A stretch of 64,000 nucleotides of DNA, taken from Alphaproteobacteria bacterium. Lineage in GTDB: Bacteria; Pseudomonadota; Alphaproteobacteria; UBA9219. Below the pieces are notes generated by a model, which saw only the letters and a list, made by a program, of their open reading frames with translations, was not told the DNA's origin and made no database searches. Of this stretch, positions 8,516 through 23,527 are shown piece by piece. Position numbers and translations under genes: made by a program. The stretch's first letter is position 1. Every line of letters starts with the position of its first letter. The DNA is taken from positions 13,448-77,447 of the forward strand of contig WREW01000004.1 in NCBI GenBank assembly GCA_009779135.1, in the 5' to 3' direction.

Positions 8516-8550
8516 AAAAGGCCCGTAAAGTTTCTTTGCGGGCCTTTTTT
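8516..8550. terminator. Bidirectional intrinsic terminator
   Basis: AAAAGGCCCGTAAAG-TTT-CTTTGCGGGCCTTTTTT between convergent genes. Confidence 0.85.
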
Positions 8551-8564
8551 ATTTCATGAGCCTG

Positions 8565-9242
8565 TTATTGTATGCTGAGGACTTGGAAGAAATAATATCC
8601 TTCGGGCACGTTATTGCTGTCATCAAGGCGCACACAGCCCATCTGCTTGCCGCGTAATTTTAACGGCCAAGCATCCGTGGCATCCATCGCAAACTGCTCT
8701 TGTGAGGTAATATCGCCAAGCGAAACGCGCGTACGGTTAAGGTCGTTGATGTCGATCTGGGCAAGTCCGACAATGCGGGAATTGATTTCATCACAAACGC
8801 CCTTTTGAACGCGCAGCATGGCAACGCGCGAACCGGCACCGGTACCAAGACGCGGAATAGCAATCAAGGGGAAATGCCATTCATCCGTAGTCGGATCAGC
8901 CCCCATGGTCGTCGAAGGCGGCGAGATTCCGCCACCGATCGGTGAAAAAAGATCCTCAGGCTGACTTGTTGAATCGGGGTCAATCCGGATGTCTGAAATA
9001 TCGATGCCATTGGACATGATGCGGTCAAACCCGATCCTAAGAGTTTGCCCGATATCCACCAAAGCAGCAGCCTTGGCGCGGTTGCCTTCACTTGTCGCGT
9101 TGGTTGTAAACGAGCCGCTGCCGGCCGCGATCGCCGCAGCCAAAATCCCCAGAACGGCGATGATGAACAAAATAGGGCCAATGGCAATACCAGCATCGCG
9201 ATCGAACCGCTGTTCGTCTTGAGATGATGGTATATAAAGCAT
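8565..9242 (-). CDS. Atypical type IV pilin-like protein (no Glu+5)
   Basis: RDAG|IAIGPILFIIAVLGILAAAIAAG resembles a class III signal peptide; two Cys in the C-terminal domain; last gene of the filament operon; alternative start 9278. Confidence 0.65.
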   Translation of the reverse strand: MLYIPSSQDEQRFDRDAGIAIGPILFIIAVLGILAAAIAAGSGSFTTNATSEGNRAKAAALVDIGQTLRIGFDRIMSNGIDISDIRIDPDSTSQPEDLFSPIGGGISPPSTTMGADPTTDEWHFPLIAIPRLGTGAGSRVAMLRVQKGVCDEINSRIVGLAQIDINDLNRTRVSLGDITSQEQFAMDATDAWPLKLRGKQMGCVRLDDSNNVPEGYYFFQVLSIQ

Positions 9243-9306
9243 CCTGATCCCCTGTTCCAAACCGACTTTCATACGCAAGTCCGATAGTAATCATAAAGCA
9301 AGAATC

Positions 9307-9321
9307 TTAACCAAAACTTAT
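9307..9321. promoter_or_regulatory. Near-consensus CtrA box
   Basis: TTAA-CCAAAAC-TTAT (one mismatch to TTAA-N7-TTAA), 65 nt upstream of the pilin-like gene. Confidence 0.45.
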
Positions 9322-9412
9322 CTTACAAACGCTGATTCGCGTCTGAAAAACAAAGCCTCGGGCCCGCCGCCATGGAAGACAATTTCCCCTCGAAAGTCAA
9401 CCGGATTGATAC

Positions 9413-9928
9413 TCACTCATCGTCTTTTTCAATCACGAAAGAAATCTTCTGTACCGTCAAAATGGCCCGCATGGGCGCGGTGCCCGGGCACAGAGAGCCG
9501 ACACAAAGGCTTTTGATTTGCCAGCGATACTGGGGGGTGATGGTGTCGATATAGCCCAGAACCATAAGCCAGGTTCGGAACTGCCCCGCATCATTGCTGA
9601 CAACAGTCAAACTGCGATCATTACCAAGTGAGAATGAAACGCCTGTAAACCGTCTTTCAAGACGTTTTACAAGGGGTTCCAGCTCGCTGACCGTGGGAGG
9701 CCGCTGCCGGAGCTGCGGCACGTTAGGCTCCATGGACTCGGCCTCGGCCACCTGCTGGCGGGCCTGCATGGCCATATTGACCGTATAAAGCGCAAACAGC
9801 AAAACAAGCAGCGCCCCGCCCCAGCTGAGCGACACGATCACCGTCGTGGCTTTATCAAAGGAATGCAAAGCCTTGGTAACAAAGCGCGGGGATAAAAGCC
9901 GGCGTAAAGGGATGGATTGCAGTTTCAT
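9413..9928 (-). CDS. Bitopic membrane protein, putative PilO/GspM-like alignment subunit
   Basis: Single TM (IVSLSWGGALLVLLFALYTV) then a ~110-aa periplasmic domain; operon position. Confidence 0.5.
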   Translation of the reverse strand: MKLQSIPLRRLLSPRFVTKALHSFDKATTVIVSLSWGGALLVLLFALYTVNMAMQARQQVAEAESMEPNVPQLRQRPPTVSELEPLVKRLERRFTGVSFSLGNDRSLTVVSNDAGQFRTWLMVLGYIDTITPQYRWQIKSLCVGSLCPGTAPMRAILTVQKISFVIEKDDE

Positions 9929-9937
9929 GACGGCCCC

Positions 9938-11026
9938 CTATCGTTCTCTTCTTTGCGTTCGGCCAAGCTGCGTGGCATCCTTGTCACTGCCGATGATAAC
10001 CCCAAGATCAGTCGTCCCCAAAGTCTGCCCCTCCAGATCCTTGATACGGTCTGATGTGGTGCTGGCGGGGACAATGGCACGCCACCGTGCGCGGTTGCCC
10101 TCAATCAGATAAATCTCAAGATAGCCATTCAGGTTCAAAAGCCCGTCATTGACATCGGCAAACCGCCCGAGCTGCTCACGCATGGGGCTGGCGCGTTGAT
10201 TTTGTGCAAGCCTTAAAAGCTCAGCCGAGCGGGCTTCCGAGCGCTCCATCACCGTCGCCGCGTCAATGCGCGCGCTGATGGACACCATGGCCGCCAAAAA
10301 CCAGACCATCAGCGCCACAGCCGCCATCGTCACCGCGCCGAGCACGGAGAACGTCGCCAAAACACGTCTGGCGCGCTCCTCAAACAAGGACAGGGAGAAC
10401 CAAGGCATAGGCGTCAGCTTTTGAATGCGGTCGGGAATAAGATCGACAATACCGGCATCCCCAAGCTCACGCGAGGCCCGTTCAGCCTTCGCGCGGATCA
10501 CCGAGGAGGTTCCGCGATAAATCTGAAGCCCGTCCGGCAGCAGCACCATCATGGTCGCCGCTTCATCGCTGTAATAGGTATAAATAACGGGCGGATCAAG
10601 CGCATCCGCCATACCGGGCAGCAGCGAGGAAAAAGGACACCAAGTGTTGGGGTGCGAGCTCAGCTGCGAAGCGCGAACCGCCACATACCAGATCTTGTCA
10701 CCTCTGGCCTGCCAGACGACCAGCACACGCTCGGTATCAGCAGCTTCTGCGGCGGCGTTCCAGACGATCTCCTGCTCCTCCCCCACGATGCGCGGGCAGC
10801 ACCCGCCGATCAGATCAGGGGGAAAATAGTAATCCGCCAAAGCGCCCACCGCGCCGGTCATGGCGCGCGGCACCGAGCTTGAAGAGTCCCATTCGGGCCC
10901 GCCGTCAAGAGAACCCTGCGTCACGAAGCTTTCATAAGCCTTGCCGAGCGAACCCTGCCCCGCCGGCGAAGGCGCCGTCTTGGCTGGATTGGCAAAAAAC
11001 CTTTTTGCCTTTGAAAAATTGACCAA
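9938..11026 (-). CDS. Putative PilMN/GspL-like alignment subunit (cytoplasmic domain + TM + coiled coil)
   Basis: ~220-aa soluble N-terminus, TM VLATFSVLGAVTMAAVALMVWFLAAMV, helical C-terminus; TTG start after GGAGG; follows the platform gene. Confidence 0.5.
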   Translation of the reverse strand: MVNFSKAKRFFANPAKTAPSPAGQGSLGKAYESFVTQGSLDGGPEWDSSSSVPRAMTGAVGALADYYFPPDLIGGCCPRIVGEEQEIVWNAAAEAADTERVLVVWQARGDKIWYVAVRASQLSSHPNTWCPFSSLLPGMADALDPPVIYTYYSDEAATMMVLLPDGLQIYRGTSSVIRAKAERASRELGDAGIVDLIPDRIQKLTPMPWFSLSLFEERARRVLATFSVLGAVTMAAVALMVWFLAAMVSISARIDAATVMERSEARSAELLRLAQNQRASPMREQLGRFADVNDGLLNLNGYLEIYLIEGNRARWRAIVPASTTSDRIKDLEGQTLGTTDLGVIIGSDKDATQLGRTQRRER

Positions 11027-11035
11027 TGACGCCTC

Positions 11036-12256
11036 CTACCCTCGCATTTCGTTAATGTTGCTCAAGAAACCTTCATTTTGCAACATGAGGAGATAAATCG
11101 TTGTCAGGATGGTGATCGCCGACAATCCTATAAGCAGATAAAGCCCGAACTTTATGATTTTACGCTGATCGGTCTTCGCCATCAAGCTGCGTTCTTCAGA
11201 TATGGAGTCAAAAACTTCGGCCAGCTGCTCAACGGACTGAATGGTGAGGATCTGATCCCGCTCAGCCTTGGTCAAGGGCGCCCTTGCAAGGGCGCGCGCC
11301 GGCTCAACGCCGGCCATAAGCTTGCCTTCGCATTCGCTCCAATAAAGCCGCGCCACAGGCTCGACCGAACTTTCAATAATGATTTCAAGAGCCTCGGCCA
11401 AAGGCACCTTGCCACGGATCAGGCGTGCCATAAGCTTGCAAGTATCTTTAAAGCTCACATTGCGCAAATAATTGGCCAAAAGCGGCACCCACGTCATCAT
11501 CCGCGCCGTATAGTGATCCCGACGGTGGCGGTTGCGCCAATAGGCCCAGACAAAGAACACAATGCCCAAAACCATCACGGTCGAGGCAAAAAGCATCGTG
11601 CCGTTCAGCCAAGAAACCATTTGGATGCCGCGCTGGAATTTTTCAACAGCCGCAGGATCTGTGCTTTTGACGCCCTGCTCCCGCAAAAGAGGGATAAACC
11701 AGAACTGAACGCCCCAGATGGTGCTGATGACCGCAAAAATATCAAAGGAAATCCAGCTCAGCGCCGCGACAACGAGCTTATATTGCGCCCCTTTTTGCTC
11801 GACATGCTCAATAGCATGCTGGATCACGCCCTTGAGGTCACCGGCCCGCTCACCGGCCATAATGATGGCCATGGTGGGGGCGTCAAAAAGTTTAAGCTCT
11901 TTAAGCGCTTCGGAAAAGGAGCCGCCCCCCTTCAACACCGTGCGCGAAGGCAGAAAAGCAAGCCGCCGTCTGGGATCCTCTTCGCCTTCAATGATATTCA
12001 TAAAGGCCGTACCAGCTGACGCCGTGGCGGACTGAAAGCGGATCGCGCGCAAAAGTTGGAACTGCCATTCGCGTGAGCGCACATCCATCCATTCGAACAA
12101 AGGCGGTTTTTGCTCGTAAATCTTGATGGGCCAAAGTCCGCGCGCGCGCAGGCTGCGGCGCACGGCAGTCTCATCAGGAAGATAAAAATCTTCATTTTCG
12201 ACCAGAACCGAGCCGCCGATCGTAGATCTTGCAAAACGTGCGCGGTAGAGCTTCAT
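11036..12256 (-). CDS. Type II secretion system F family / PilC platform protein
   Basis: Two T2SSF-like domains (GGSFSEAL...AGERAGDL; GKVPLAEAL) separated by TM helices. Confidence 0.85.
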   Translation of the reverse strand: MKLYRARFARSTIGGSVLVENEDFYLPDETAVRRSLRARGLWPIKIYEQKPPLFEWMDVRSREWQFQLLRAIRFQSATASAGTAFMNIIEGEEDPRRRLAFLPSRTVLKGGGSFSEALKELKLFDAPTMAIIMAGERAGDLKGVIQHAIEHVEQKGAQYKLVVAALSWISFDIFAVISTIWGVQFWFIPLLREQGVKSTDPAAVEKFQRGIQMVSWLNGTMLFASTVMVLGIVFFVWAYWRNRHRRDHYTARMMTWVPLLANYLRNVSFKDTCKLMARLIRGKVPLAEALEIIIESSVEPVARLYWSECEGKLMAGVEPARALARAPLTKAERDQILTIQSVEQLAEVFDSISEERSLMAKTDQRKIIKFGLYLLIGLSAITILTTIYLLMLQNEGFLSNINEMRG

Positions 12257-12268
12257 AAAACGCCCCCC

Positions 12269-14023
12269 TTACCGTCCCCGCCCCGAACGCGCGGCAACAT
12301 CTTCAACCATCAGCGAAGCGCCCATATTGGCATCAATAACGCGCCTGCGGATAAGGTCGCGCAAAGAGTCGCGACGTGGCAGATAAACCGTTCCGGGCAC
12401 ATCAATCACCGAGGATGTCATGTTGGAAATCATCATCTCGGTAATGGCGCGGCGTGAGGCCTGATCCTCCGGCGGGAACATGGCTTCCAAAATCAAAGTA
12501 CGGCCTAAAAAGCCCGTATGGTTGCAAACATCGCAGCCCTGCGTGCTGGCCAGAGCAAGCGTTTCATCCGGATGCACGCCGATATCCGCGCAGCGGCGTT
12601 CATCCCCATAAACGCGCAAGGCGGCTTCAATGCGATGACAAGTCGGACAAACCATTTTAACCAGACGCTGGGACAGCGAAGCCACCAAAGCATGGCCCAG
12701 AATGTAAAGCCCGCTCGTCCGGTAAGAGGAACTTAAAAAGCCGTCAATACGATCCAGCGTGTGAATAGCATCGACCGCGTGGACGGTCGTGACGACAAGA
12801 TGGCCTGACTCCGTCGCGCGCAAAGCGGCTTCCACCGTGTCGCCGTCACGCATTTCACCCACGATGATGACATCAGGATCATGACGCATCAAAGCGCGGA
12901 TAATATCAGCAATCGTGTTGGCTGAATTGTCGGTCACGGATGTTTGATCCACAAGCGGCATATCATATTCAACCGGCGCCTCCACCGAATATACGGCACG
13001 GGCCGAGCGGTCGATTTCCTGAATAATACCGTAAAGCGTCGTTGACTTACCCGAACCCGTAGGCCCGCTGACGACAATCAGGCCGCCATCCTTGGTGTGG
13101 CTGTGAACGGCGCGGCGCAAGCGCTCGGCCACCAAAGGCGTGTTGATGAAAAGCTCATCAAAACTGCGCAGGTTTTCACGGTCAAGCAAACGAAGCGTCA
13201 GTTTTTCCCCCGACGGCGCCACGGGCAAAGTCGCAACACGCACGTCAATCACGCGGCCCTGCCATTCAAAACCAAGACGCCCGTCCTGAGGATGCTGGCG
13301 ATCCGCCGCGTCCATCTTGGCGTCCGTCTTGATGCGCGTGACAAGCGGCGCCATCACGCGGTGCGGGACGAGATGCTTATAAACAAGATCGCCATCGACA
13401 CGATAGCGTATCCAGCAGCGCGCATCATCATCCATCAGGGAAAAGTGAATATCCGAACCGCGGCTTTGCAAAGCTTCGGAAAGAATGTCATGCAAGGCCT
13501 GCTCAATCAGCGTCGCATCATCAGGATCACGCGCCAGCGAAGCAAAAAGGCGCAGGAGTCTTTCACTGGCGACCTCGCTCTGCTCGCGCATCAGGCGCAT
13601 TAAATCGGAGCGATCCCAAGACTCGACATCTATCTTGACCACTTCACGATTGGCGCGTTCAAGGGCGGACGCGATGTGCAGCAAGTCCGCATCATCCACG
13701 CGATCGCCCGCCGCCAGCTTTAAAACGCCGTCTTTAAGCTCCAAAAGGCAAAGCCCCATGGCCGCCTGCTGCGCCACCGAAACATAAAGGCGTAAAGCCT
13801 GCATGGTAAGATCTTCGCGCCGCCCGCCGCGCGCTTTGGCGCGTGAAAGATCGGCCACGACAAAACCGTTGCGGCGTAAAATCTCTTCAACCGTAAGATA
13901 ACGGCCCGTCGCGCGGAGCATGCTCTGCTCGGACAAGGCAAGCTCATAATGGCGGGGATGAATGCGTTTGGCTTCACCCTGCTCAAGCGCTTCTTCTTCC
14001 GCTATGATCCGTGCTTCATTCAT
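12269..14023 (-). CDS. GspE/PulE/PilB family assembly ATPase
   Basis: GSDIHF, RYRVDGDL, Walker A GPTGSGKSTT, RHDPDVIIVGEMRD, GHLVVTTVH, CPTC...CDVC zinc motif. Confidence 0.93.
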   Translation of the reverse strand: MNEARIIAEEEALEQGEAKRIHPRHYELALSEQSMLRATGRYLTVEEILRRNGFVVADLSRAKARGGRREDLTMQALRLYVSVAQQAAMGLCLLELKDGVLKLAAGDRVDDADLLHIASALERANREVVKIDVESWDRSDLMRLMREQSEVASERLLRLFASLARDPDDATLIEQALHDILSEALQSRGSDIHFSLMDDDARCWIRYRVDGDLVYKHLVPHRVMAPLVTRIKTDAKMDAADRQHPQDGRLGFEWQGRVIDVRVATLPVAPSGEKLTLRLLDRENLRSFDELFINTPLVAERLRRAVHSHTKDGGLIVVSGPTGSGKSTTLYGIIQEIDRSARAVYSVEAPVEYDMPLVDQTSVTDNSANTIADIIRALMRHDPDVIIVGEMRDGDTVEAALRATESGHLVVTTVHAVDAIHTLDRIDGFLSSSYRTSGLYILGHALVASLSQRLVKMVCPTCHRIEAALRVYGDERRCADIGVHPDETLALASTQGCDVCNHTGFLGRTLILEAMFPPEDQASRRAITEMMISNMTSSVIDVPGTVYLPRRDSLRDLIRRRVIDANMGASLMVEDVAARSGRGR

Positions 14024-14049
14024 AAAGAAAACCAATCATCAAACCAGGC

Positions 14050-15456
14050 TCAAGGAACTCCCTGCCCGGGCGAAGGCAAAGGCGTTGAAACATTCGCCGC
14101 ACCCGCGCGTCCCGGCATAGGCGCAGGCGCCGGTGCGATTGAAGGATCAGGCGTGCCGATGCCCCATCGCGCCGGCCCCGAAGGAGGACCACCCATTGGC
14201 GGCAATGAAAAAGACCGCCGAGGCGCGGCGCGGGCCGTCAGATCGGAAACAACTTCGAGATTCAAAATGCGCTCTTTGCCGTTCATCAAAACCGCAGCAT
14301 TGCGCGGCGTCACATTCAAAAGCTTCAGCGTCATATCCCCGTCCTTCACCGTCTCGCCCACCTCCAGCACAAGCGTTGTGCCGTCCGAGCGATAAAGCAA
14401 GGCGCGCACGCCCACCGTGCCGATCAAGTGATAGCCGATACTGGGCAGCACCGGCATAACAGCCGTACTCTGGGGTATTTTAAGGTCGGAGACCGAAAGA
14501 GACGGAATCTGTCCGCCCGAGATCAAACGATCCACATCACTTGCGCTTGGCGTGGTGGCAACCGGCATGCCTGTCTGCGCGCGCGTTGTTGAAGCGCCGC
14601 TGTCCGTAACAGCGCTTTTCGGCTCAGCCGGAACTTTGGCCGCGCCACGCACGGGAATAACGGAAAAACCAAGCTGGCCCGTATGGCGGATAATAAGATC
14701 CGTTGAAATCGTCCCACGGTTTTCCGGCTTCCACAGCATGGTGATGGGACAGGACTCGCCTTGTTTAAGCTCCATATCAAGGCCGCACCCTTGGTCAAGC
14801 CTTTGCAGACCGTTGCCTGCCGCAATCAGCTCAATGGACAAAATCTTTATCATCTCGTTGCTGTCATTAAGCATCAAAGCGCTGCGCACAGCGCTTGCGC
14901 CCACCTCGACATCGCCGAAATCAATGGGCTTGATGTCGCGCGCGCTTAAAGTCAAACCAAGCTCACGCCTTTCGCTCGCCACCGCGCCGGTCTTGCCGGT
15001 GATGCGCGCGCGCGCATTGCGGCCCGCGCCCCTGTGGGTCATCAGAACTTCCGCCGTCCATGTTCCTGACGCCGTAGGCGTAACCTCAGCCGTCACCGCG
15101 CAACGGCTGCTTGGCGGGATTTCCTTCTCGCGCGAACAATCATCGCTTACAATCACCGCGCTGACATTGCTGTCCCCGCTGACCGTGACGCTTTCAACTT
15201 CCACAGGAAGATTGGTAAGAAGATTGACAAAGAAAAATGTCGCGCGGCGCCCGACTCCCAAAGGCGTATCGCCGACATCAATGTCAGCCTTGGGCTCGAT
15301 CGTCACAGCGCCTTCATTGATGACAGAGCCTGTACGCGGGGCGACAAAAGCAGCCTCACGCGCGGCGCTGGCCGGTGTCGTGGTCATCAGCAACGCAAGA
15401 CCAGCGAACAAGACCATGAAGGATATTTTGGCTCTAATCAGTCTCATCCATCCCAT
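14050..15456 (-). CDS. Exported protein with two tandem Ig-like (ASH/HYDIN-VesB-type) domains and a PilP/GspC-like C-terminal region
   Basis: Signal peptide; two repeats with C-x(9-11)-C-x-(V/I)T...P...G (DDCSREKEIPPSSRCAVTAEVTP; QGCGLDMELKQGESCPITMLWKP); C-terminal LIGTVG..ALL...G.TV. Confidence 0.65.
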   Translation of the reverse strand: MGWMRLIRAKISFMVLFAGLALLMTTTPASAAREAAFVAPRTGSVINEGAVTIEPKADIDVGDTPLGVGRRATFFFVNLLTNLPVEVESVTVSGDSNVSAVIVSDDCSREKEIPPSSRCAVTAEVTPTASGTWTAEVLMTHRGAGRNARARITGKTGAVASERRELGLTLSARDIKPIDFGDVEVGASAVRSALMLNDSNEMIKILSIELIAAGNGLQRLDQGCGLDMELKQGESCPITMLWKPENRGTISTDLIIRHTGQLGFSVIPVRGAAKVPAEPKSAVTDSGASTTRAQTGMPVATTPSASDVDRLISGGQIPSLSVSDLKIPQSTAVMPVLPSIGYHLIGTVGVRALLYRSDGTTLVLEVGETVKDGDMTLKLLNVTPRNAAVLMNGKERILNLEVVSDLTARAAPRRSFSLPPMGGPPSGPARWGIGTPDPSIAPAPAPMPGRAGAANVSTPLPSPGQGVP

Positions 15457-15499
15457 CCCCGTTTTTTTGCCGCCCTGAACAAAGCATTTTTCTTATCAA

Positions 15500-17323
15500 C
15501 TACGTCCCCCCGCTCTGCAGCGAAGAGGGCGGCATTGTTTCAAGAGCGCTGCTTAAACTTTGCTGCATAAGCTGGCTGTCAACCGGCGGACTATCAACCG
15601 GCGCGGCTTGTGATGGCAGAGAGGCTACCGGCGGCAAAGCATCGCCCGGCGGACTGCCGGAGAGGTCGGACTCCCGAAACTTTTCGGACACGCTTTGATG
15701 GAGCAGATCCGCAGGCTTCAAGCTTATAGGCGCAAGCTCAGGCTGGCTTGCAACCTGCACCACGGCCTGAGGGGCATCCGGAATCACAAGCTGCTGCGCG
15801 CCGTCCTGATCGACAACCACAGCATTCTGCCCGTGAAAAACCGCGTCAGGCGCGCTGTTTTGCACCGAAGCCGCAAGGCGTGCGGAAGCAGGCGCGCGCG
15901 GCGTTTCCTTTTTCTCAACAAACTGCACGACCGAGGGCTTGACCAGAATGACAAGCTCCGAATTGCGCAGCTGATCGCGTTTATAAGTCGGTATGCCGCT
16001 GAAAAGGGGAATATCCTCACGATTATTATCATCGCGCGAGCTGACAAGACCGGCCAAAAGCAGATTATCGCCCGGACGAATACGCACAGAAGTCGAAACG
16101 CGCCTTTCGGATGTTTCAGGCAGGTCAATCAACATGCCGCCTTCCATCGTGGTGGGATTAATCCTGATGACATCCTGCAGCTCAAGCTCAAGCAAGGCAG
16201 AAATAACGCCGCTTTCAAAGCTGCCATTCACCGAGACCCTAAGGCCCGTATCAAGACTGTCGGTGGTGATGGTGCTGTTGGAAGCATTTGTCACAGATCC
16301 CGAAACGCTGTTAAGCGTTCCCACCTGCGAGATATAACGCTGCTTGCCCCCCACCTTGAACTCAGCATTTGAGCCTGAAACGAAGGTCAGCTGAGGATTG
16401 GAAACGGTCTGCACCTGACCTTGCGTGGAAAGAAAGCGGAACAACACATCCGCATTCACCTTGCCCGTAAAAGCAGCGCCGACGCTAACCCCGCCCGCTG
16501 TGGCAATGCCGGCCATAAATTGCGAAACGCTGTTCACCACCAGTTTTTGCGCATGCCCGCCAAGATCCGGTATTTCAAACTTAGACCAGTTGATCCCCTT
16601 GCCGTTGTCGCGGTCTAAAGTGACTTCCCAGATATAAAACTGCATCACGACCAAAGGACGCCCCTGACGCAAATAGGCAAGATATTCGCTGACATGGTCA
16701 TAACCATCGACATCCGATGTGTAGAGAAGATTGCCACCCTGTTGGTCAATGCGCACTTTTTCGCCGGCAAGCTCGCCGATGGTTTCAGCCATGGTGTTGG
16801 TGGTCGAAGAGGCAAGATCCGCGCTCGGCACCGTGGGAAGCTCGATAATAAAGGTCTCCCGCTCCCGCAGCTCTAAAAGGCCTTTGCGATAGCCGCAGAA
16901 AACCTTGGCTGAGGCGCAGATTTTATCCACAACCATAGGCAGAGGCCCGCTTAAATTAGAGACCGTGACCAGACGGTTTTCAAAAACCCCCGCCTCCCAC
17001 GAAAGAGAAACATCAGTCCCCGCCAAAACAGCCTGCAGTGCTGCCGTCACGGGCACGGCGCTTAAATTGGTGTTGGGAACGATGATCTTGGCAGGTAAAG
17101 GCTCCGTCCGGCTCAAGCGGCGCTCCCGCAGCTGCGAGCCAAGCTCCAGCCTGACAATAGGAGGGTCTTTCTCGCCGCGCACAGTTTCCTCGGGATCCGG
17201 AACCTCAGCAAGGTTCGGCACGCGGCCGGTTGTAGGTTTGGCATTGGGCACAGTGATGTCGGGGCCCGTACAAGCCCACAAAAACATCGCAGCCATAGCC
17301 AACAAAAGAACATTAAAGCGCAT
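15500..17323 (-). CDS. Lipoprotein secretin of the type IV filament system
   Basis: Lipobox LWAC after MRFNVLLLAMAAMF; secretin motifs VQTVSNPQLTFVSG, NLLLAGL, SELVILVKPSVV; Pro/Ser-rich C-terminal tail; alternative start 17377. Confidence 0.85.
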   Translation of the reverse strand: MRFNVLLLAMAAMFLWACTGPDITVPNAKPTTGRVPNLAEVPDPEETVRGEKDPPIVRLELGSQLRERRLSRTEPLPAKIIVPNTNLSAVPVTAALQAVLAGTDVSLSWEAGVFENRLVTVSNLSGPLPMVVDKICASAKVFCGYRKGLLELRERETFIIELPTVPSADLASSTTNTMAETIGELAGEKVRIDQQGGNLLYTSDVDGYDHVSEYLAYLRQGRPLVVMQFYIWEVTLDRDNGKGINWSKFEIPDLGGHAQKLVVNSVSQFMAGIATAGGVSVGAAFTGKVNADVLFRFLSTQGQVQTVSNPQLTFVSGSNAEFKVGGKQRYISQVGTLNSVSGSVTNASNSTITTDSLDTGLRVSVNGSFESGVISALLELELQDVIRINPTTMEGGMLIDLPETSERRVSTSVRIRPGDNLLLAGLVSSRDDNNREDIPLFSGIPTYKRDQLRNSELVILVKPSVVQFVEKKETPRAPASARLAASVQNSAPDAVFHGQNAVVVDQDGAQQLVIPDAPQAVVQVASQPELAPISLKPADLLHQSVSEKFRESDLSGSPPGDALPPVASLPSQAAPVDSPPVDSQLMQQSLSSALETMPPSSLQSGGT

Positions 17324-17603: not shown

Positions 17604-17702
17604 CGATCTTTTCTGTAGCGCAACTATTATCCACATGCTAGGGTATTTCCTACAGCCCAACAAGCCCCATAAAAGCATTTGAACAACCCACAGGAGGACG
17701 TT

Positions 17703-18581
17703 ATGTTTAAAGGAATTGATAGAGCAACAGAAACCCTCTCCATGTTTCCGCTTGCCCTTTGCTGGACTAAAGAAATGCCTTTGAAAGACTACAAATACAT
17801 CTGCAGCTTCAGAGCACCGCCTGGGGAGTATAGCATGATAGAGAACAGCCGTCGTGGCAGGGTCTATCAAGTGCCGGACGGGCAGTTGTATTTTGCGGAT
17901 GCTATATTTATTCAAGGCGACTCCTTAAAATCAAGCAGATTTTACATTCGTGAACTGGGCTTTCAAAAGCTTCGCGCTTTGCCTGCAAAAAACAAATGGG
18001 GCCACCCTAGTCCGAATGAATGGGAAGAACTCAAGGCCAATCTGGACGGCCCTGCCCCTGAAAACGTCAAAAACGATTTGCGTGCGCTTTTGAAGAATCC
18101 TGAAGAATGGCAGCCATCCAGATCACTTTACCAGACCTATGAAGAGCTATGTAAAGTATTAGGTATTCAAGCATTAAGCCTTCAGTTGGAAGACTACAAA
18201 TATATCTGCAAGTTCAGAGCGCCGCCTGATGAATATAGCATTATGGAGAACAACCATCGTGGCGTGGCCCTTCAAACGCCGGACGGTCAGTTGTATTTCG
18301 TAGATGTTGACGAACTCCGCTACGATCCAGGCCCAAGCAGATATCACTTTCGTGAACTAGGCATTCAAAAGCTTCGCGCCTTGCCTGCGGAAGGTAAGAG
18401 GAATCGCGTTAATCCGAATGAGTGGGAAGAACTCATGGCCAATCTGGACGGCCCTGCCCCTGAAAACGTCCGAAGCGATTTGAGCAAACTTTTTAGGAAT
18501 CCCGAAAAAGTACACAGATTAATTATCGAGATGTATTATCGGGAGCCGCCTTGTAAGCCTAAAACATTAAGCCTTCAGTAA
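17703..18581 (+). CDS. Hypothetical protein built of two tandem ~135-aa modules
   Basis: GGAGGA RBS before ATG 17703; modules LKDYKYICSFRAPP...PDGQLYF...ELGFQKLRALPA...NEWEEL.ANLDGPAPENV repeated. Confidence 0.8.
   Translation: MFKGIDRATETLSMFPLALCWTKEMPLKDYKYICSFRAPPGEYSMIENSRRGRVYQVPDGQLYFADAIFIQGDSLKSSRFYIRELGFQKLRALPAKNKWGHPSPNEWEELKANLDGPAPENVKNDLRALLKNPEEWQPSRSLYQTYEELCKVLGIQALSLQLEDYKYICKFRAPPDEYSIMENNHRGVALQTPDGQLYFVDVDELRYDPGPSRYHFRELGIQKLRALPAEGKRNRVNPNEWEELMANLDGPAPENVRSDLSKLFRNPEKVHRLIIEMYYREPPCKPKTLSLQ
17781..18578 (+). repeat. Diverged tandem direct repeat: 405 nt (17781-18185) + 393 nt (18186-18578)
   Basis: Copies start TTGAAAGACTACAAATA / TTGGAAGACTACAAATA and both end CATTAAGCCTTCAG. 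Confidence 0.92.
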
Positions 18582-18605
18582 CCGCTATCAAAACAGGAGA
18601 TAACG

Positions 18606-19445
18606 ATGCCGAAGGCTGGCCTTACTGCGGTCCGGTTCCGCAATCAAATTGTCAAGGTCATTTATCGTGTCGGCTTAAAAAGAGCCATGGCGCATTTGTC
18701 GACAGGGATCGCCTATTCCGGCCCTTTTTTCAATTATGTTGGCATTGTTGATGATAACAATACCAAAAAATCAGAAAGGATGGCGTTGCGTCTTCATGCT
18801 TCGCGGATCAATGATACTTGGATTGCGCGAAATCTTTCCAAAGAAAAGCGGGCCAATTATTTCCAACCCGTTTACGAAAAACTTATCAAACATCCAGACG
18901 ATTCAGCCAAGCTGGATGAGGTGCTCCAAGCTGCTTACAACACAGTATGGGGCGGTGTTTCAATCGAGTTTGCAAAGCTGCCTTTTAAGGAAATCGCAAC
19001 GGCTGTTTGCGGCGCGGCCAAAAAACAAGTCTTTTTCCGCTATGAATTGCCTGTTCTTGTCCAGAACCCGCATATTCAGGCTTGCAATGAAATCCCGATG
19101 GACGCCGTTCGCCGTATGTATAACGAAGTCGGAAAAGATGAAGCCTATAATCTTATTTGTTTGTCGGAACTTCGTATGGCTTTCCGTTATGCGTCCGGCT
19201 TTGTGCCAAGCCCCCACCTTGCGTGGAAAGATTTTGTTGACCGCATATATTTCCATCGGGACGAACGCTTCCACACGGCACCAAAGAGAAGCCCGCTCAC
19301 AACGGAGCAAGAACAACGCAAGCAACAGATTATTGCAGACTTCGGTCTTGACACCCTCTATGCAACATCGCCTGTGGCATGGGGTGGCCCTGTCGCTGTG
19401 ACCAAAAAATCCAAAGCTTTACCTTATAAAAAAATTACCCTATAA
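18606..19445 (+). CDS. Hypothetical protein (279 aa)
   Basis: AGGAG RBS, long open frame in an AT-richer segment; no motif recognised. Confidence 0.75.
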   Translation: MPKAGLTAVRFRNQIVKVIYRVGLKRAMAHLSTGIAYSGPFFNYVGIVDDNNTKKSERMALRLHASRINDTWIARNLSKEKRANYFQPVYEKLIKHPDDSAKLDEVLQAAYNTVWGGVSIEFAKLPFKEIATAVCGAAKKQVFFRYELPVLVQNPHIQACNEIPMDAVRRMYNEVGKDEAYNLICLSELRMAFRYASGFVPSPHLAWKDFVDRIYFHRDERFHTAPKRSPLTTEQEQRKQQIIADFGLDTLYATSPVAWGGPVAVTKKSKALPYKKITL

Positions 19446-19655: not shown

Positions 19656-19874
19656 GTGACCTTTAAAAATCTCTCTTTGCTTTTGGTTTTGTTGTCAGGC
19701 TGCGCGCCCGCCATGGACAGGGGCCAAATTGAATCCGCCTTCGGGCCGCCTGACATGATGCTGCGCATTGATGATGGCGACACAAAAGTTACCTACAAAC
19801 GCACCACCATCACCATCATCTATGACAAGAACGACAAGGTCAAATCAGTCAGGGGGGATGACCGTAAGAAATAA
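19656..19874 (+). CDS. Small lipoprotein (SmpA/OmlA-like motif)
   Basis: Lipobox LSGC; QIESAFGPPD motif followed by short beta strands. Confidence 0.65.
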   Translation: MTFKNLSLLLVLLSGCAPAMDRGQIESAFGPPDMMLRIDDGDTKVTYKRTTITIIYDKNDKVKSVRGDDRKK

Positions 19875-19955: not shown

Positions 19956-20552
19956 ATGCCTCACATCCATAAGCGCACGCGCGGCTTTACCCTGATGGAA
20001 GCTGCTATTGTCCTCGGTATTATCGGCTTGATTACCGCAGGCATCTGGGTCGCCGCAGCCGCTGTCCTCAAACAGAAAAGAGTAACGGAATCCTACGGCA
20101 TATTGATCCAGATTTCACAGAACATGCGTGCCCTTTACGAAAAACACCCCTATTTTTCCAGATTTTCCCCGGGTGAGGACATCACAGTTCCCATGCGTCA
20201 AGCAGGTGTATTTCCGGCAGACCTGTTTGCAAGCGCGGCTGACAATGTCCCGCGCAACCCTTGGAACACGCCCATAAGCATCACGGTCGGCCCGTCAACC
20301 GGCGTTTCGCCGCCCCATAGCTTTATCGTCACCTTCGAGCCTGTGCTGGCTTTTGACGACTGCGCCAAGTTGGTTCTGCTGGCCACAGGCCCCTCGGGCC
20401 CGGGGGGGATTGATGCCGTCATCATGAACGGAGGCCCCACCATCGAAGCCGTGGATGCCGACAATCCGAACAACAGAAACAACAACTTGCGCAATCTCAC
20501 GCTGCGCCAGATCACAGGCTGCCGTGGTGTCGGTTTCCGTTTAAGGCTTTAA
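19956..20552 (+). CDS. Type IV pilin with canonical N-terminal methylation motif
   Basis: KRTRG|FTLMEAAIVLGIIGLITAGIW; RNPWNTPISI; two Cys; AAGGA RBS before ATG 19956. Confidence 0.88.
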   Translation: MPHIHKRTRGFTLMEAAIVLGIIGLITAGIWVAAAAVLKQKRVTESYGILIQISQNMRALYEKHPYFSRFSPGEDITVPMRQAGVFPADLFASAADNVPRNPWNTPISITVGPSTGVSPPHSFIVTFEPVLAFDDCAKLVLLATGPSGPGGIDAVIMNGGPTIEAVDADNPNNRNNNLRNLTLRQITGCRGVGFRLRL

Positions 20553-20555
20553 AGC

Positions 20556-21557
20556 ATGACGCCCCAGCCGCTAACCTTCTTAACAGGCGCAACGGGCTTT
20601 ATGGGCGCGGCTTTGGCGCGCACGCTTGAAAGCAAAGGCCATCGCCTGCGGCTTTTGTGCCGCTCAAACTGCAACACGCTCAATCTTGAAGGCTTGACGA
20701 ACAGCAAAGTGGTTGTAGGCGATCTTCAAGACCCAGATAGCTACAGCCACGCCCTTGTGGGATGCGACTTCCTTTTCCACGCGGCGGCAGATTATCGCAT
20801 ATGGGTTCCCGATCAAGATGTTATGTACCGCATCAATGTTGAAGGGACGCAGGCTCTGATGCGTGCGGCGCAGAAAGCGGGTGTCAAAAAGATCGTCTAT
20901 ACAAGCTCGGTGGCCACGCTCGGCATCCCCAAAGGCGGGATCGGCACGGAAGACACAGCTGTGTCTTACACGGACATGATCGGCATCTACAAACGCTCGA
21001 AATACGAGGCAGAAGAAATCGTCCGCGCCATGGCTTTGGAAGAAGATCTGCCGGTCGTGATCGTCAACCCTTCAACGCCCGTAGGGCCGCGCGATGTCAA
21101 ACCCACCCCGACAGGACGCATTATCATTGAAGCCGCCACAGGCCGCATGCCCGCTTATATCGACACCGGCCTGAATATTGCGCATGTGGATGATGTGGCT
21201 GAGGGCCACTGGCTGGCCCTGAAAAAAGGAAAGACGGGCGAACGCTATATTCTAGGTAGCGAAAACATGGATTTTCTTTCTATCCTGAAAACCATCGCCG
21301 CGCTGACAAAACAAAAACCGCCGGTGCTGCGTCTGCCGCGCGGGCCTCTTTTCCCTCTGGCCTATTTGGCGGAGAGCCTTGCCAAAATCACCGGAAAAGA
21401 ACCTTTCTTGACGGCTGACGGGCTGCGCATGGCGGGAAAGAGGATGTTTTTCTCCTCGGAAAAAGCCATGCGTGAGCTTGGCTACGCCCCGCGCCCTGCA
21501 GAAAAGGCCATTGCGGACGCCCTCATCTGGTTTCAAAAAAACGGTTATCTGGCATGA
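20556..21557 (+). CDS. hpnA: Hopanoid-associated sugar epimerase
   Basis: TGATGFMG, FHAAADYRIW, YTSSVATLG, YKRSKY, NPSTPVGPRDVKPTPTG; adjacent to hpnC. Confidence 0.88.
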   Translation: MTPQPLTFLTGATGFMGAALARTLESKGHRLRLLCRSNCNTLNLEGLTNSKVVVGDLQDPDSYSHALVGCDFLFHAAADYRIWVPDQDVMYRINVEGTQALMRAAQKAGVKKIVYTSSVATLGIPKGGIGTEDTAVSYTDMIGIYKRSKYEAEEIVRAMALEEDLPVVIVNPSTPVGPRDVKPTPTGRIIIEAATGRMPAYIDTGLNIAHVDDVAEGHWLALKKGKTGERYILGSENMDFLSILKTIAALTKQKPPVLRLPRGPLFPLAYLAESLAKITGKEPFLTADGLRMAGKRMFFSSEKAMRELGYAPRPAEKAIADALIWFQKNGYLA

Positions 21558-22384
21558 TTGAAAAGCCAAGCGGTAAAAATGAAACGACCGAAAACTTTCC
21601 CGTCACGCGGCTTGTCGCGCGGCGCTATAAACCTCATGTCAAAGCCTTTTACATTTTCGCCCGCGCCGCAGACGACATCAGCGACGATGAAACTTTAAGT
21701 CCGGCTGAAAAATTAGAGCGTCTTGACCGCTTTGACGAAGCCTTGATCGCCCCCGAAGGCATAAATCTGGACGATGTGCCAAGCGTCAAACCGCTGCGCC
21801 AAAGCCTGAAGGAAACAGGCGTCAGCGCGCAGCACGCGCGCGATCTTCTGATCGCTTTCAAGCGCGATGCCGAAAAGTTGCGCTATGAAAACTGGGACGA
21901 GCTTTTGGATTACTGCCGCTATTCCGCAAATCCGGTAGGGCGCTATCTTCTGGAACTTCACGGTGAATCCCAAAACGCCTGGCCCGCCAATGACGCGCTT
22001 TGCACCGCCTTGCAAATCATCAACCACATTCAGGATTGCGGCGAGGATTATACCAAACTCGACCGCGTTTATATCCCGCTCGACACGATGGAACATTTCG
22101 GCGCGCGCCCCGAAGACCTCGGGCTGCCCGCCTTGACAGGCGCCATGCGCCAGACTCTTGACGCCATGCTGCAAAAGATGAATCCGATGTTAAAGCTGGC
22201 CCTGACCTTTTCGCCGCAAGTGCATGATAAAATGCTAAGATTTGACACTGCCATCATCAGTGAAATTGCGCTGCGCCTAAGCCGCGAACTCAACATCCGC
22301 GACCCCTTGAAAGAGAGGGTAAAACTAAGCACAATGCAGAAAATCCGGATTTTAGGATATGTCCTTATAAAACGCGGAGTATGA
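21554..22384 (+). CDS. hpnC: Squalene synthase HpnC
   Basis: ENFPV, FARAADDISD, YCRYSANPVGR, LQIINHIQD. Confidence 0.9.
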   Translation: MIEKPSGKNETTENFPVTRLVARRYKPHVKAFYIFARAADDISDDETLSPAEKLERLDRFDEALIAPEGINLDDVPSVKPLRQSLKETGVSAQHARDLLIAFKRDAEKLRYENWDELLDYCRYSANPVGRYLLELHGESQNAWPANDALCTALQIINHIQDCGEDYTKLDRVYIPLDTMEHFGARPEDLGLPALTGAMRQTLDAMLQKMNPMLKLALTFSPQVHDKMLRFDTAIISEIALRLSRELNIRDPLKERVKLSTMQKIRILGYVLIKRGV

Positions 22385-22388
22385 TGAA

Positions 22389-22655
22389 ATGGGCAAAAAA
22401 TCAAAAAAATCTCTCGTCTGGCAAGGTGTCATCTACACAACATTCAGGGCGGCGGCTCAGGCGATGGCGATCAGCGAAATGACGCTTCGCGGCCGCTGGC
22501 GCAAGCAAGGTTGTCCGAATTGTCTGGATGGGCTGGATCTTATTGCCTGCCCCAAAAAAATAAACGGTACGCTCCCTTCTGGCCGTGTCACTGAGGATCA
22601 GCTGAAAAGACTGGCGGCAATCCGCGTAGGAACATGGGAGCGGGCCAATCTGTGA
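22389..22655 (+). CDS. Small basic protein with a NUMOD1-like helix-turn-helix, inserted between hpnC and hpnD
   Basis: WQGVIYTTFRAAAQAMAISEMTLRGRW pattern; 4-nt gap to hpnC and GTGA overlap with hpnD. Confidence 0.55.
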   Translation: MGKKSKKSLVWQGVIYTTFRAAAQAMAISEMTLRGRWRKQGCPNCLDGLDLIACPKKINGTLPSGRVTEDQLKRLAAIRVGTWERANL

Positions 22656-23515
22656 ACAACAAAGCCCCCCCCTCTTTTGCGCAAGCCATGGCCGAGGTTC
22701 GCAGACGTGTGCGCGCCGCGCGCAGCTCTTTTACTGCCGGCATGGCCACGCTTCCTATTCCAAGGCGCGAGGCCATGTACGCCCTTTACGCCTTTTGCCG
22801 CGAAGTTGACGACATCGCCGATGACAGCCCCACAGCCGCCACGCGCGAAGAAGGTCTTGCGCAATGGCAGCAGCGTATCAAAAACCTGTTCGGAAAAGAC
22901 GAAGCAGACGAAGCCATCAGCGTAGCCCTGCGCCCCGCCATCAAACGCTTTAATCTGATCGAAGATGATTTCCAAGCCATCATCGAAGGCATGATTATGG
23001 ATTCGCGCCAAAGCATTATCGCGCCCCCCTTGGCCTATCTTGATGAATATTGCGATCATGTGGCAAGCGCGGTCGGGCGCATCAGCGTGCGCATTTTCGG
23101 CGATGACAGCGCAGCAGCAATGAAGGTCGCCCATCATCTCGGACGCGCTTTGCAGCTGACCAACATCCTGCGCGATCTGGCCGAAGATGCGCAGCGTAAT
23201 CGTCTTTATCTGCCGCAGGAGCTTTTGACAAAAAATGGGATCACAAGCAATGATCCGGCCTCCGTGCTAAGTGACCCACGCCTTGCAGCTGTTTGCATGG
23301 ATCTGGCCGCCATCGCGCGCGAACATTTCCAGCAGGCGGATCTGGCCTTGCTTGAAGCCCGCTGGTATCCCATGCGCCCCGCGCGCGCGATGCGCGATTA
23401 CTACAAGGCTATTTTAGAGCGCCTGATAAAGTCAGAATGGAAAACGCCGCATCAGCGAATGACGCTTCCCCTTTGGCAAAAGATTTGGCTTGCTTTACGC
23501 GGGCTCTTGCGCTGA
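22652..23515 (+). CDS. hpnD: Presqualene diphosphate synthase HpnD
   Basis: SSFTAGM, YAFCREVDDIAD, VASAVG, LQLTNILRDLAEDA..RLYLP; GTG start overlapping the upstream stop. Confidence 0.92.
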   Translation: MNNKAPPSFAQAMAEVRRRVRAARSSFTAGMATLPIPRREAMYALYAFCREVDDIADDSPTAATREEGLAQWQQRIKNLFGKDEADEAISVALRPAIKRFNLIEDDFQAIIEGMIMDSRQSIIAPPLAYLDEYCDHVASAVGRISVRIFGDDSAAAMKVAHHLGRALQLTNILRDLAEDAQRNRLYLPQELLTKNGITSNDPASVLSDPRLAAVCMDLAAIAREHFQQADLALLEARWYPMRPARAMRDYYKAILERLIKSEWKTPHQRMTLPLWQKIWLALRGLLR

Positions 23516-23527
23516 AAAGGAACGCTC

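Follow-up and report, generated by a model that had tools for sequence, protein, structure and literature searches.

Gene Content and Organization of the Locus

The subject of this analysis is a 64-kb stretch of alphaproteobacterial DNA (64,000 nucleotides of contig WREW01000004.1, assembly GCA_009779135.1; hereafter the window), and within it a group of seven closely packed open reading frames (ORFs) on the minus strand between positions 8565 and 17323 (Table 1). In order of transcription these encode a lipoprotein secretin, a periplasmic protein with immunoglobulin-like (Ig-like) domains, an assembly ATPase, an inner-membrane platform protein, two bitopic proteins, termed here L-like and M-like, and a pilin-like subunit. 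Micavibrio-like (Micavibrionales) bacteria share this block, which is likely to be a self-contained operon for a type IV filament (T4F) nanomachine of an undescribed subtype. The gene calls on identical public contigs, which come from one European Nucleotide Archive (ENA) assembly and one Logan assembly, match the seven ORFs and give product lengths of 607, 465, 584, 406, 362, 171 and 235 aa. Neighbouring genes are separated by 9-52 bp, with the exception of a gap of ~134-170 bp, depending on the start chosen, 5' of the pilin-like gene, and an intrinsic terminator ends both the operon and the convergent Bax1-I gene. The longest-ORF start of the ATPase gene was rejected as wrong; an exact look-up with that start found no match, while the look-up of the platform matched. 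A preliminary description of this DNA had reported one co-oriented block of these seven components, including a bitopic protein with a large cytoplasmic domain and an atypical pilin. The ORFs, the Pfam and NCBIfam domains and the public gene calls agree with that account, as do the AlphaFold2 model of the 362-aa protein and the N-terminus of the last product, which is that of a pilin lacking glutamate at position 5 (Glu5 or E5).

Table 1. Positions of the operon, its terminator and the nearby canonical prepilin gene in the window.
Feature	Length	Position	Strand	Evidence
Lipoprotein secretin	607 aa	15500-17323	-	PF00263, 67.6 bits; lipobox LWAC
Periplasmic Ig-like protein	465 aa	14050-15447	-	ASH PF15780, 33.3 bits, above cut-off
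Assembly ATPase, GspE/PilB class	584 aa	12269-14023	-	T2SSE, 289 bits, above Pfam cut-off
GspF/PilC inner-membrane platform	406 aa	11036-12256	-	T2SSF, 51 bits, two stretches, above Pfam cut-off
Putative GspL-like bitopic protein	362 aa	9938-11026	-	AlphaFold2 model and Foldseek
Small bitopic M-like protein	171 aa	9413-9928	-	Position after L-like gene
Pilin-like subunit without Glu5	225-235 aa	8565-9272	-	Family alignment; AlphaFold2 model
Bidirectional intrinsic terminator		8516-8548	.	15-bp stem between A and T runs
Canonical prepilin	198 aa	19956-20552	+	N_methyl PF07963, 23.3 bits, cut-off 21.2

Components of the Machine

The pair of proteins by which the T4F superfamily is recognised, a PilB/GspE-family ATPase and a PilC/GspF platform, is found at the locus with Pfam; domain calls throughout were made by scanning Pfam and NCBIfam profiles against their cut-offs. 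The ATPase carries a Walker A motif (GPTGSGKS) and a tetracysteine motif (CPTC...CDVC), and its scores to the NCBIfam models are all under cut-off (GspE 262 bits against 630, PilB 235 against 676, TadA 48 against 373; PilT 146 bits). Among solved structures it lies closest to EpsE/GspE (214 bits), followed by PilB (186), PilF (171), PilT (100) and BfpD (79). No T2SSE_N or MshEN match was obtained for residues 1-165 at E <= 0.1; the N-terminal segment RYLTVEEILRRNGFVVADLSRA may loosely resemble the MshEN motif that binds cyclic di-GMP (c-di-GMP). The platform likewise scores far under the NCBIfam cut-offs (ComGB 48 bits, GspF 42 with a cut-off of 424, PilC 39). Neither a second T2SSE-type ATPase nor further copies of any of the seven families occur in the window.

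The secretin has its conserved domain at residues ~300-467 and a signal sequence that ends in the lipobox, a feature of 28 of the 33 members of the family and of the plasmid homologues described below. The top NCBIfam model is MshL (105 bits, cut-off 250), ahead of GspD (65/351), the PilN-type secretins (51/288) and PilQ (22/284), and the closest solved structure is BfpB, the lipoprotein secretin of a type IVb pilus (46 bits). The C-terminal tail of ~140 aa (window 15500-15920) is rich in Pro, Ser, Gln and Ala; tblastn alignments to relatives end before it, and it appears to be variable among them.

The second gene product carries a Sec-type signal, two domains of the Ig-like (ASH / choice-of-anchor D) kind, in each of which a pair of Cys is conserved, and a Pro-rich tail, the choice-of-anchor D score of 42.2 bits being slightly under cut-off. 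It also possesses a conserved C-terminal beta-domain (residues ~343-405) with the motif LIGTVGxRA, which may resemble the PilP/GspC homology-region (HR) domain that binds the N0 domain of the secretin. The only Pfam family matched by more than one member in this region is T2SSC, weakly (2 of 21 members, E = 0.033), and the top match of the domain is the positionally equivalent protein of Methylibium, also weak (E = 0.031). A profile search of PDB sequences with this domain gave no significant match, and the family alignment compared with a single E. coli GspC gave an hhalign probability below 3%. The Ig-like protein is a candidate for the connector between secretin and inner membrane, in the position of PilP/GspC.

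The L-like protein matches no Pfam or NCBIfam family. Its AlphaFold2 model (predicted local distance difference test, pLDDT, 79) comprises a disordered N-terminal tail, a cytoplasmic alpha/beta domain at ~63-205, one transmembrane helix at ~222-246 and, on the periplasmic side, a long helix and a small alpha/beta domain. The top five Foldseek matches in the PDB are PilM of P. aeruginosa (5eox), the cytoplasmic domain of V. cholerae EpsL (1yf5 and 1w97) and PilO2 of B. pseudomallei (PilO2Bp, 4bz0 and 4byz); at E = 2.5e-3 to 6.5e-2 (1.3e-2 for the EpsL domain) these are individually weak and unanimous. On this model the protein is a putative alignment subunit of the GspL/BfpC/PilO2 type. Its 224 database relatives all come from uncultured genomes, and comparison of the family with a single E. 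coli GspL gave an hhalign probability below 3% and no profile match.

The M-like gene always directly follows the L-like gene in related loci. Its product has a short cytoplasmic N-terminus, a hydrophobic or transmembrane segment at 28-50 and a periplasmic domain with an invariant CxGxxC, and homologues occupy the same position on both plasmids (E = 9e-17 and 2e-9). It matches no Pfam or NCBIfam family and nothing significant among PDB sequences, the hhalign probability against a single E. coli GspM is below 3%, and hhalign finds nothing between the M-like and L-like families, such that a paralogy of the PilN/PilO type cannot be claimed.

The Pilin-Like Subunit

The most unusual feature of the machine is the family of its subunit. 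A variable leader precedes an invariant (D/N)AG↓IAIGPILFIIAxLGILAAAIAAGSGSF (the arrow marks the presumed cleavage site). Numbered from the invariant glycine as -1, the protein has isoleucine at +1, proline in place of glutamate at +5 and glycine at +14. Classical pilins also carry glycine at +14. Of the features that define a class III signal peptide (a short charged leader, Gly at -1, a hydrophobic alpha1N and Glu at +5), the protein shows a leader, the invariant glycine and a hydrophobic segment of 27 residues, together with a predicted long helix. In the AlphaFold2 model (pLDDT 86.5, predicted TM-score 0.75) this helix spans ~57 residues (21-41 and 45-77) with a kink at GSGS, and the head consists of three strands and two helices with two invariant cysteines. 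No Pfam or NCBIfam family, N_methyl included, matches the protein. The sole alignment to E. coli GspG is in register (G-1/G-1, P5/E5, G14/G14) and not significant, with an hhalign probability below 3%.

Conservation within the family is highest in the hydrophobic N-terminus (0.95) and falls to 0.56 in the head and 0.41 in the leader, while in the two bitopic proteins the membrane anchor is conserved at 0.51-0.57. Because the hydrophobic segment is the most conserved part here and the bitopic anchors behave in the opposite way, the gradient is that of a filament-core helix rather than of a plain anchor. An exhaustive profile search places 1051 clusters at 50% identity in the superfamily; nearly all of 20 relatives inspected have an N-terminus of the type G↓IA(I/L)GPILF, and the most distant have a degenerate form. 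Two matches per locus occur in 7 loci, of which six hold true tandem paralogues (L026, L027, L038, L040, L046 and L048); in the other, L044 (11742-12348), two halves of one gene lie in adjacent frames, which suggests a frameshift and not a duplicate. Paralogues also occur outside the operon in related genomes.

One further contig (ENA ERZ27257312; L055, 8163-19293) holds a module of L-like, M-like and two pilin-like genes, followed by a protein with a class-III-like G↓F N-terminus, a DsbA and a 1105-aa protein of the repeats-in-toxin (RTX) type with HemolysinCabind and Calx-beta domains. The 8 kb upstream of this module contain neither an ATPase nor a platform gene; the genes there are small and of no known family. 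The L-like, M-like and pilin-like families are in neither Pfam nor NCBIfam, and their members are currently labelled 'hypothetical' or, wrongly, 'PulG'.

Conservation in Related Genomes

The phylogenetic distribution of the operon was surveyed with one genome per species, which yielded 47 loci encoding the L-like protein. All are in metagenome-assembled genomes, labelled Alphaproteobacteria, Rhodospirillaceae, Micavibrio sp. or 'Bdellovibrionales', the order under which NCBI taxonomy places Micavibrio. The seven genes occur in unchanged order in ~45 of these 47 species-level loci. Identity to the window proteins is 69-86% for the ATPase, 54-78% for the platform, 43-63% for the L-like protein, 45-63% for the secretin, 34-59% for the pilin-like protein and 28-60% for the M-like protein; the descent from ATPase through platform to pilin is, judged from these sequences, purifying conservation with the gradient typical of T4F systems. 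The nearest species-level genomes (~86% ATPase and 63% L-like identity) are too distant for a same-species genome to be present in the collection searched. The window sequence itself occurs in termite-gut metagenome DNA runs only (2017 and 2019), and no RNA runs carry it.

The flanks of the related loci are unrelated to filaments and differ among clades, with hopanoid-type genes in some, nadB/nadC in others, and MscS/Bax1-I. Recurrence of one gene order within differing flanks is far more than chance would produce. Clustering of all flanking reading frames of the related loci revealed no eighth conserved gene, and the operon thus comprises exactly seven. In a distant subclade, genes upstream of the secretin and in the same orientation were considered as extra components and rejected, as they are nadB and nadC.

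Two variant loci, L045 (7780-12334) and L047 (8092-12258), have no ATPase or platform gene and a secretin shortened to 319 and 253 aa, and keep the Ig-like, L-like, M-like and pilin-like genes; they represent either decay or a split system. A gene of the receiver-EAL type (a c-di-GMP phosphodiesterase-type protein) converges on the pilin-like gene in 13 loci, and not in the window; among them are L020, L024-L026, L028, L029, L032-L034, L036, L042 and L045 (for example L032, 12335-16199). It is followed by a gene of ~900 aa in at least L032 and L045, the two that were mapped. The convergent gene hints at c-di-GMP control in one subclade.

Homologous Clusters on Plasmids and an Apparent Orthologue in Micavibrio aeruginosavorus

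Plasmids were searched by tblastn with the ATPase and then with the family profiles built in this analysis. Homologous clusters were found on two conjugative megaplasmids, those of Rhodoferax ferrireducens T118 (NC_007901; L053, 4431-18838) and Methylibium petroleiphilum PM1 (NC_008826; L052, 5847-14702), and the L-like family is present in only these 2 of 72,556 plasmid records. By the family profiles, six of the seven components have homologues there, in unchanged order. The plasmid proteins score well above their E. coli counterparts: 206-304 bits with the secretin profile against 32 (31.6) for GspD, 292-348 with the ATPase profile against 212 for GspE, and 164-179 with the platform profile against 38 for GspF. 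With the L-like, M-like and pilin-like profiles the plasmid scores are 41-52, 30-54 and 15-47 bits, and GspL, GspM and GspG give no match.

The plasmid clusters share with the operon the order of components, the lipoprotein secretins and the lack of Glu5 in the pilin-like proteins, which begin KG↓F(I/M)N(A/G)(L/M)... and have Leu or Met at this position. They differ in being plasmid-borne, beside PRTRC, integrase and topoisomerase genes, in a periplasmic protein without two Ig domains, in the N-terminus G↓F(I/M)N... rather than G↓IAIGP..., and in extra pilin-like genes. The Rhodoferax cluster alone has two tandem secretin-like genes and a peptidyl-prolyl isomerase, and it ends in a 1049-aa protein; its L-like protein has 7 relatives in a database search, none with an informative name. 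Because genes beyond the secretin, ATPase, platform and isomerase are annotated as hypothetical, the plasmid comparison yields no function.

An apparent orthologue of the operon is found in the cultured M. aeruginosavorus ARL-13, whose expression table (PMC3189940, Additional file 4) contains the run GMV_1937 to GMV_1930: a secretin-family gene of 1785 bp, a hypothetical of 1632 bp, a type II/IV secretion ATPase of 1842 bp, and hypotheticals of 1221, 996, 531, 738 and 774 bp. The order is that of the window and the lengths match, the 1221-bp gene having the exact length of the window platform gene; GMV_1930 and GMV_1931 are two genes of similar size, to be compared with the tandem pilin-like pairs of other loci. 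All genes of the run are transcribed, and GMV_1931, in the pilin position, is the highest, rising from 9.9 in attack phase to 53.8 in attachment phase (PMC3189940). Three leader peptidases appear in this table, and one, the 507-bp 'type IV leader peptidase' GMV_1939, is encoded two genes upstream of the run; the table also has PilD, a Tad locus (GMV_527-540) and a separate set (GMV_1530-1544) in which PilT is accompanied by another twitching-motility ATPase, a leader peptidase of 825 bp, a secretin and prepilins (PMC3189940). The genome paper describes an incomplete type II secretion system (T2SS) and dispersed pil genes and does not single out the operon (PMC3189940), and our literature searches found no paper describing the seven-gene system.

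These comparisons change the picture given in the preliminary description in several respects. The synteny check that it had proposed bears out a gene set and order conserved as a unit in ~45 of the 47 loci. The system is not a peculiarity of one alphaproteobacterium, as had been implied, and is lineage-wide in Micavibrio-like bacteria, with homologues on two betaproteobacterial plasmids. As reported, the block has no PilT retraction ATPase or pseudopilin set; its lack of a prepilin peptidase stands for the locus and not necessarily for the genome, given that the relative ARL-13 lists PilT, PilD, prepilins and a short leader peptidase. Nor does the block give the full picture, as there is a canonical prepilin 2.5 kb upstream and there are pilin-family paralogues elsewhere in related genomes. 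The non-Tad character of the machine is upheld by the TadA score (48/373 bits). Its status as a distinct T4F subtype fits best equivalog scores far under cut-offs and alignment and pilin families that are not in Pfam or NCBIfam.

Neighbouring Genes

The canonical prepilin gene is divergent from the operon and encodes the N-terminus KRTRG↓FTLMEAAIVLG. Only the 7 closest loci have a homologue immediately upstream of the secretin; the protein is possibly an accessory or alternative subunit, and its membership of the system is uncertain. Its stop codon is 4 bp ahead of the start of an NAD-dependent epimerase gene, the first of a hopanoid/squalene-type cluster at 20556-24829 (+) that continues with two SQS_PSY synthases and an amine oxidase. 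The epimerase gene adjoins the secretin in 18 related loci, a conserved synteny with no obvious functional link.

Between the secretin and the canonical prepilin, two genes of 300 and 279 aa are inserted at 17679-19445 (+), a stretch of lower G+C content (0.47-0.50). Neither product has a Pfam match or a homologue in any of the 47 related loci, and the 300-aa protein is an internal tandem duplication with a unit of ~145 aa (LxDYKYICxFRAPPxEYS...NPNEWEEL...LDGPAPENV). Upstream of the canonical prepilin, at 19656-19874 (+), lies a small putative lipoprotein of 72 aa (a 53-aa gene in the public contig) whose signal ends in LLSGC. The remainder of the window consists of housekeeping genes.

Proposed Machine and Alternative Explanations

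The operon encodes a real, conserved and uncharacterised variant of the T4F machine. Its parts are those described above, and their interplay is modelled on the paradigm of the T2SS and the type IV pilus (T4P). The hexameric ATPase of the GspE/PilB class, with its tetracysteine motif, would dock on the platform and on the actin-like cytoplasmic domain of the L-like protein, which would pair in the periplasm with its 171-aa bitopic partner. Platform movements driven by ATP hydrolysis may then raise pilin-like subunits, presumably cut after the invariant glycine by a prepilin peptidase encoded elsewhere, from the inner membrane into a helical filament. This filament would pass, or drive cargo, through the self-anchored lipoprotein secretin, which the two-Ig protein probably joins to the inner-membrane complex by way of its conserved C-terminal beta-domain. 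As the operon contains no retraction ATPase, the filament would be static or short, or would retract without a motor.

Several observations weigh against this reading. The subunit is without Glu5, which classical pilins require for assembly and which is regarded as near-invariant in this role, and its head has no relative in the PDB (best Foldseek E = 0.96; nothing significant with the sequence profile). Prepilin cleavage is assumed, since neither a GspO search nor a GxGD motif scan, both of which are weak for short peptidases of the TadV type, detected an A24 prepilin peptidase in the window or up to 10 kb away in the 47 loci. The TM-scores of the L-like fold matches are low, at 0.17-0.25 query-normalised and 0.17-0.42 target-normalised. 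The GspM/PilO role of the M-like protein is suggested by its fixed position, and the PilP/GspC assignment of the Ig-like protein by its position together with weak hints. The ARL-13 run was equated with the operon from gene lengths and annotations rather than sequence, and the machine as a whole is known here from its genes alone.

As to function, a surface or trans-envelope filament for cell contact is tentatively favoured over a T2SS-like endopilus, with somewhat less than even confidence. Cultured Micavibrio-like bacteria are obligate epibiotic predators, which stay fixed to the outer surface of their prey (Pseudomonas aeruginosa among others) as they feed. This epibiotic lifestyle, the 200-aa subunit with its capacity for a disulfide and the secretin of T4b/MSH type favour the surface filament, whereas the motor of GspE type, the way in which L-like and M-like proteins are arranged and the missing retraction ATPase favour the endopilus. 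Since the nearest relatives of the ATPase are the GspE proteins of the T2SS, a role in secretion is as open as one in prey adhesion.

The endopilus alternative, in its specific form, is a minimal T2SS-like machine in which a short periplasmic filament of the E5-less protein would drive hydrolases or toxins out by way of the secretin while the cell feeds on prey. It accords with an ATPase whose nearest NCBIfam model is GspE (262 bits) and whose nearest solved structure is EpsE (214 bits), with a gene order, D-(C-like)-E-F-L-like-M-like, that parallels gspCDEF...LM, with a fused GspL-type protein rather than separate PilM and PilN, with the missing retraction ATPase and with T2SSC as the sole recurrent Pfam hint for the C-terminus of the Ig-like protein. 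However, where a T2SS has five pseudopilins there are here one or two pilin-like genes, and the lipoprotein secretin is nearest to MshL and BfpB and not to GspD (31.6 bits with the family profile). There is also no significant similarity to the GspL, GspM, GspC and GspG proteins of E. coli, the subunit of more than 200 aa with two invariant cysteines is unlike GspG, and the GspE, GspF and GspD equivalog cut-offs are missed widely. On this balance a T2SS-like machine appears rather doubtful.

In both the T2SS and type IVa pili (T4aP), the member without Glu5 is the tip subunit, and GspK lacks this residue. The E5-less protein could accordingly be a tip or initiator subunit like GspK, the bulk of the filament being built from canonical prepilins encoded elsewhere, for example by the gene at 19956-20552. 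A canonical prepilin does adjoin the operon in the window and in its 7 closest loci, and M. aeruginosavorus has eight prepilin-type proteins in three operons (PMC3189940). Nevertheless, this canonical prepilin is absent from the vicinity of the operon in ~40 other loci, including that of the close relative L003, whereas all operons carry the E5-less gene, in some cases as a tandem duplicate. Every linked pilin-like protein on the plasmids is without E5 as well, and the gene in the pilin position is the highest expressed of the ARL-13 run. A tip role appears unlikely.

Much less likely is a mobile-element pilus, now chromosomal, that serves mating-pair stabilisation or DNA uptake in the manner of the thin pili of R64 and PAPI-1. 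The sole homologous clusters among the plasmid records do lie on conjugative megaplasmids, beside PRTRC, integrase and topoisomerase genes. In Micavibrio-like genomes, by contrast, the operon stands between housekeeping genes in several contexts that lack integrase and transfer genes, at least 47 species have conserved it, and its G+C content in the window (0.52-0.58) is similar to that of the rest of the window. A decaying, non-functional remnant, as L045 and L047 with their missing ATPase and platform and shortened secretin might suggest, is rejected on conservation: the seven frames are intact in the window and in all other long-enough loci, with one possible frameshift in the L044 pilin gene, ATPase identity is 69-86%, and the apparent ARL-13 orthologue is transcribed.

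The preferred reading of a contact filament has a more far-reaching version. This would be a machine lineage whose fibre is made of subunits with Glu5 replaced by Gly-Pro (Leu or Met in the plasmid branch) and an unrelated head fold, and which acts as a dedicated prey-contact or feeding organelle of Micavibrio-like obligate epibiotic predators; it is put forward as somewhat improbable at present. If true, the replacement of Glu5 implies another chemistry for subunit-to-subunit registration in the filament core, and a conserved machine with an E5-less protein as its sole linked subunit would probe the generality of the current assembly model. Type IV filaments are among the best-studied bacterial nanomachines, and the alignment proteins and pilin of this operon are outside every curated family. 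With seven genes, and apparently expressed in M. aeruginosavorus, the operon is a compact and genetically tractable candidate for predator attachment or feeding, and the L-like, M-like and pilin-like families are offered as three new families to annotation pipelines.

Comparison with Known Type IV Filament Systems

The T2SS is approached in the motor, with GspE nearest to the ATPase and the tetracysteine motif shared, and in the platform, the absence of a retraction ATPase, the L-like protein with its EpsL/PilM-like cytoplasmic fold followed by a small bitopic partner, and the order secretin, ATPase, platform, L-like, M-like. The operon differs from it in having neither the GspG-K pseudopilins (a single pilin-like gene is present, and no N_methyl proteins lie inside) nor a recognisable GspC with HR and PDZ domains. 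Its secretin is a lipoprotein, unlike GspD, the subunit exceeds 200 aa and lacks Glu5, no peptidase gene is at the locus, and the scores to the T2SS equivalogs fall short (GspE 262/630, GspF 42/424, GspD 65/351 bits).

The mannose-sensitive haemagglutinin (MSH) pilus is resembled in the top secretin model, MshL, in the order secretin, accessory, ATPase, platform and pilins last, and in the lack of PilT; all MSH loci are also without a prepilin peptidase, as is the operon (Denise et al. 2019, PMC6668835). In the TFF-SF models, mshA, E, G, L and M are mandatory for MSH (PMC6668835). The operon, however, has no recognisable MshM (an AAA protein), MshN, MshI/J/K or pilins MshB, A, C, D, O, P and Q, its MshL score is 105 of the 250 bits of the cut-off, its accessory gene encodes an Ig-domain protein, and the N-terminus of its ATPase has no T2SSE_N/MshEN match.

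Likeness to the type IVb pili (T4bP), namely the bundle-forming pilus (BFP), the toxin-coregulated pilus (TCP) and the R64/PAPI-1 pili, lies in the lipoprotein secretin with BfpB as its closest structure, the compact single locus, the bitopic actin-like protein as in BfpC/PilO2, the non-Phe residue at +1 of the subunit and the presence of relatives on conjugative plasmids. Against this, the ATPase is nearer to GspE (214 bits) than to BfpD (79 bits), the PilN-type secretin model scores 51/288 bits, the locus has no peptidase although the TFF-SF T4bP model requires one, Glu5 is missing from the subunit and the gene order is another.

With Tad/Cpa the operon has in common that it is a T4F machine of alphaproteobacteria without PilT. 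It differs in an ATPase that scores only 48/373 bits to TadA/CpaF, in one two-domain platform of 406 aa instead of TadB and TadC, and in lacking a Flp pilin, CpaB/RcpC and TadZ. The T4aP differs as well (PilB 235/676 and PilQ 22/284 bits, and no second ATPase in the window). Both the Tad and the T4aP systems are excluded because of the ATPase and platform scores. Thus, as far as its sequences and their profile scores can place it, the operon is a member of the type IV filament superfamily of a subtype not yet described, and it is probably one of the 'generic' systems of Denise et al.

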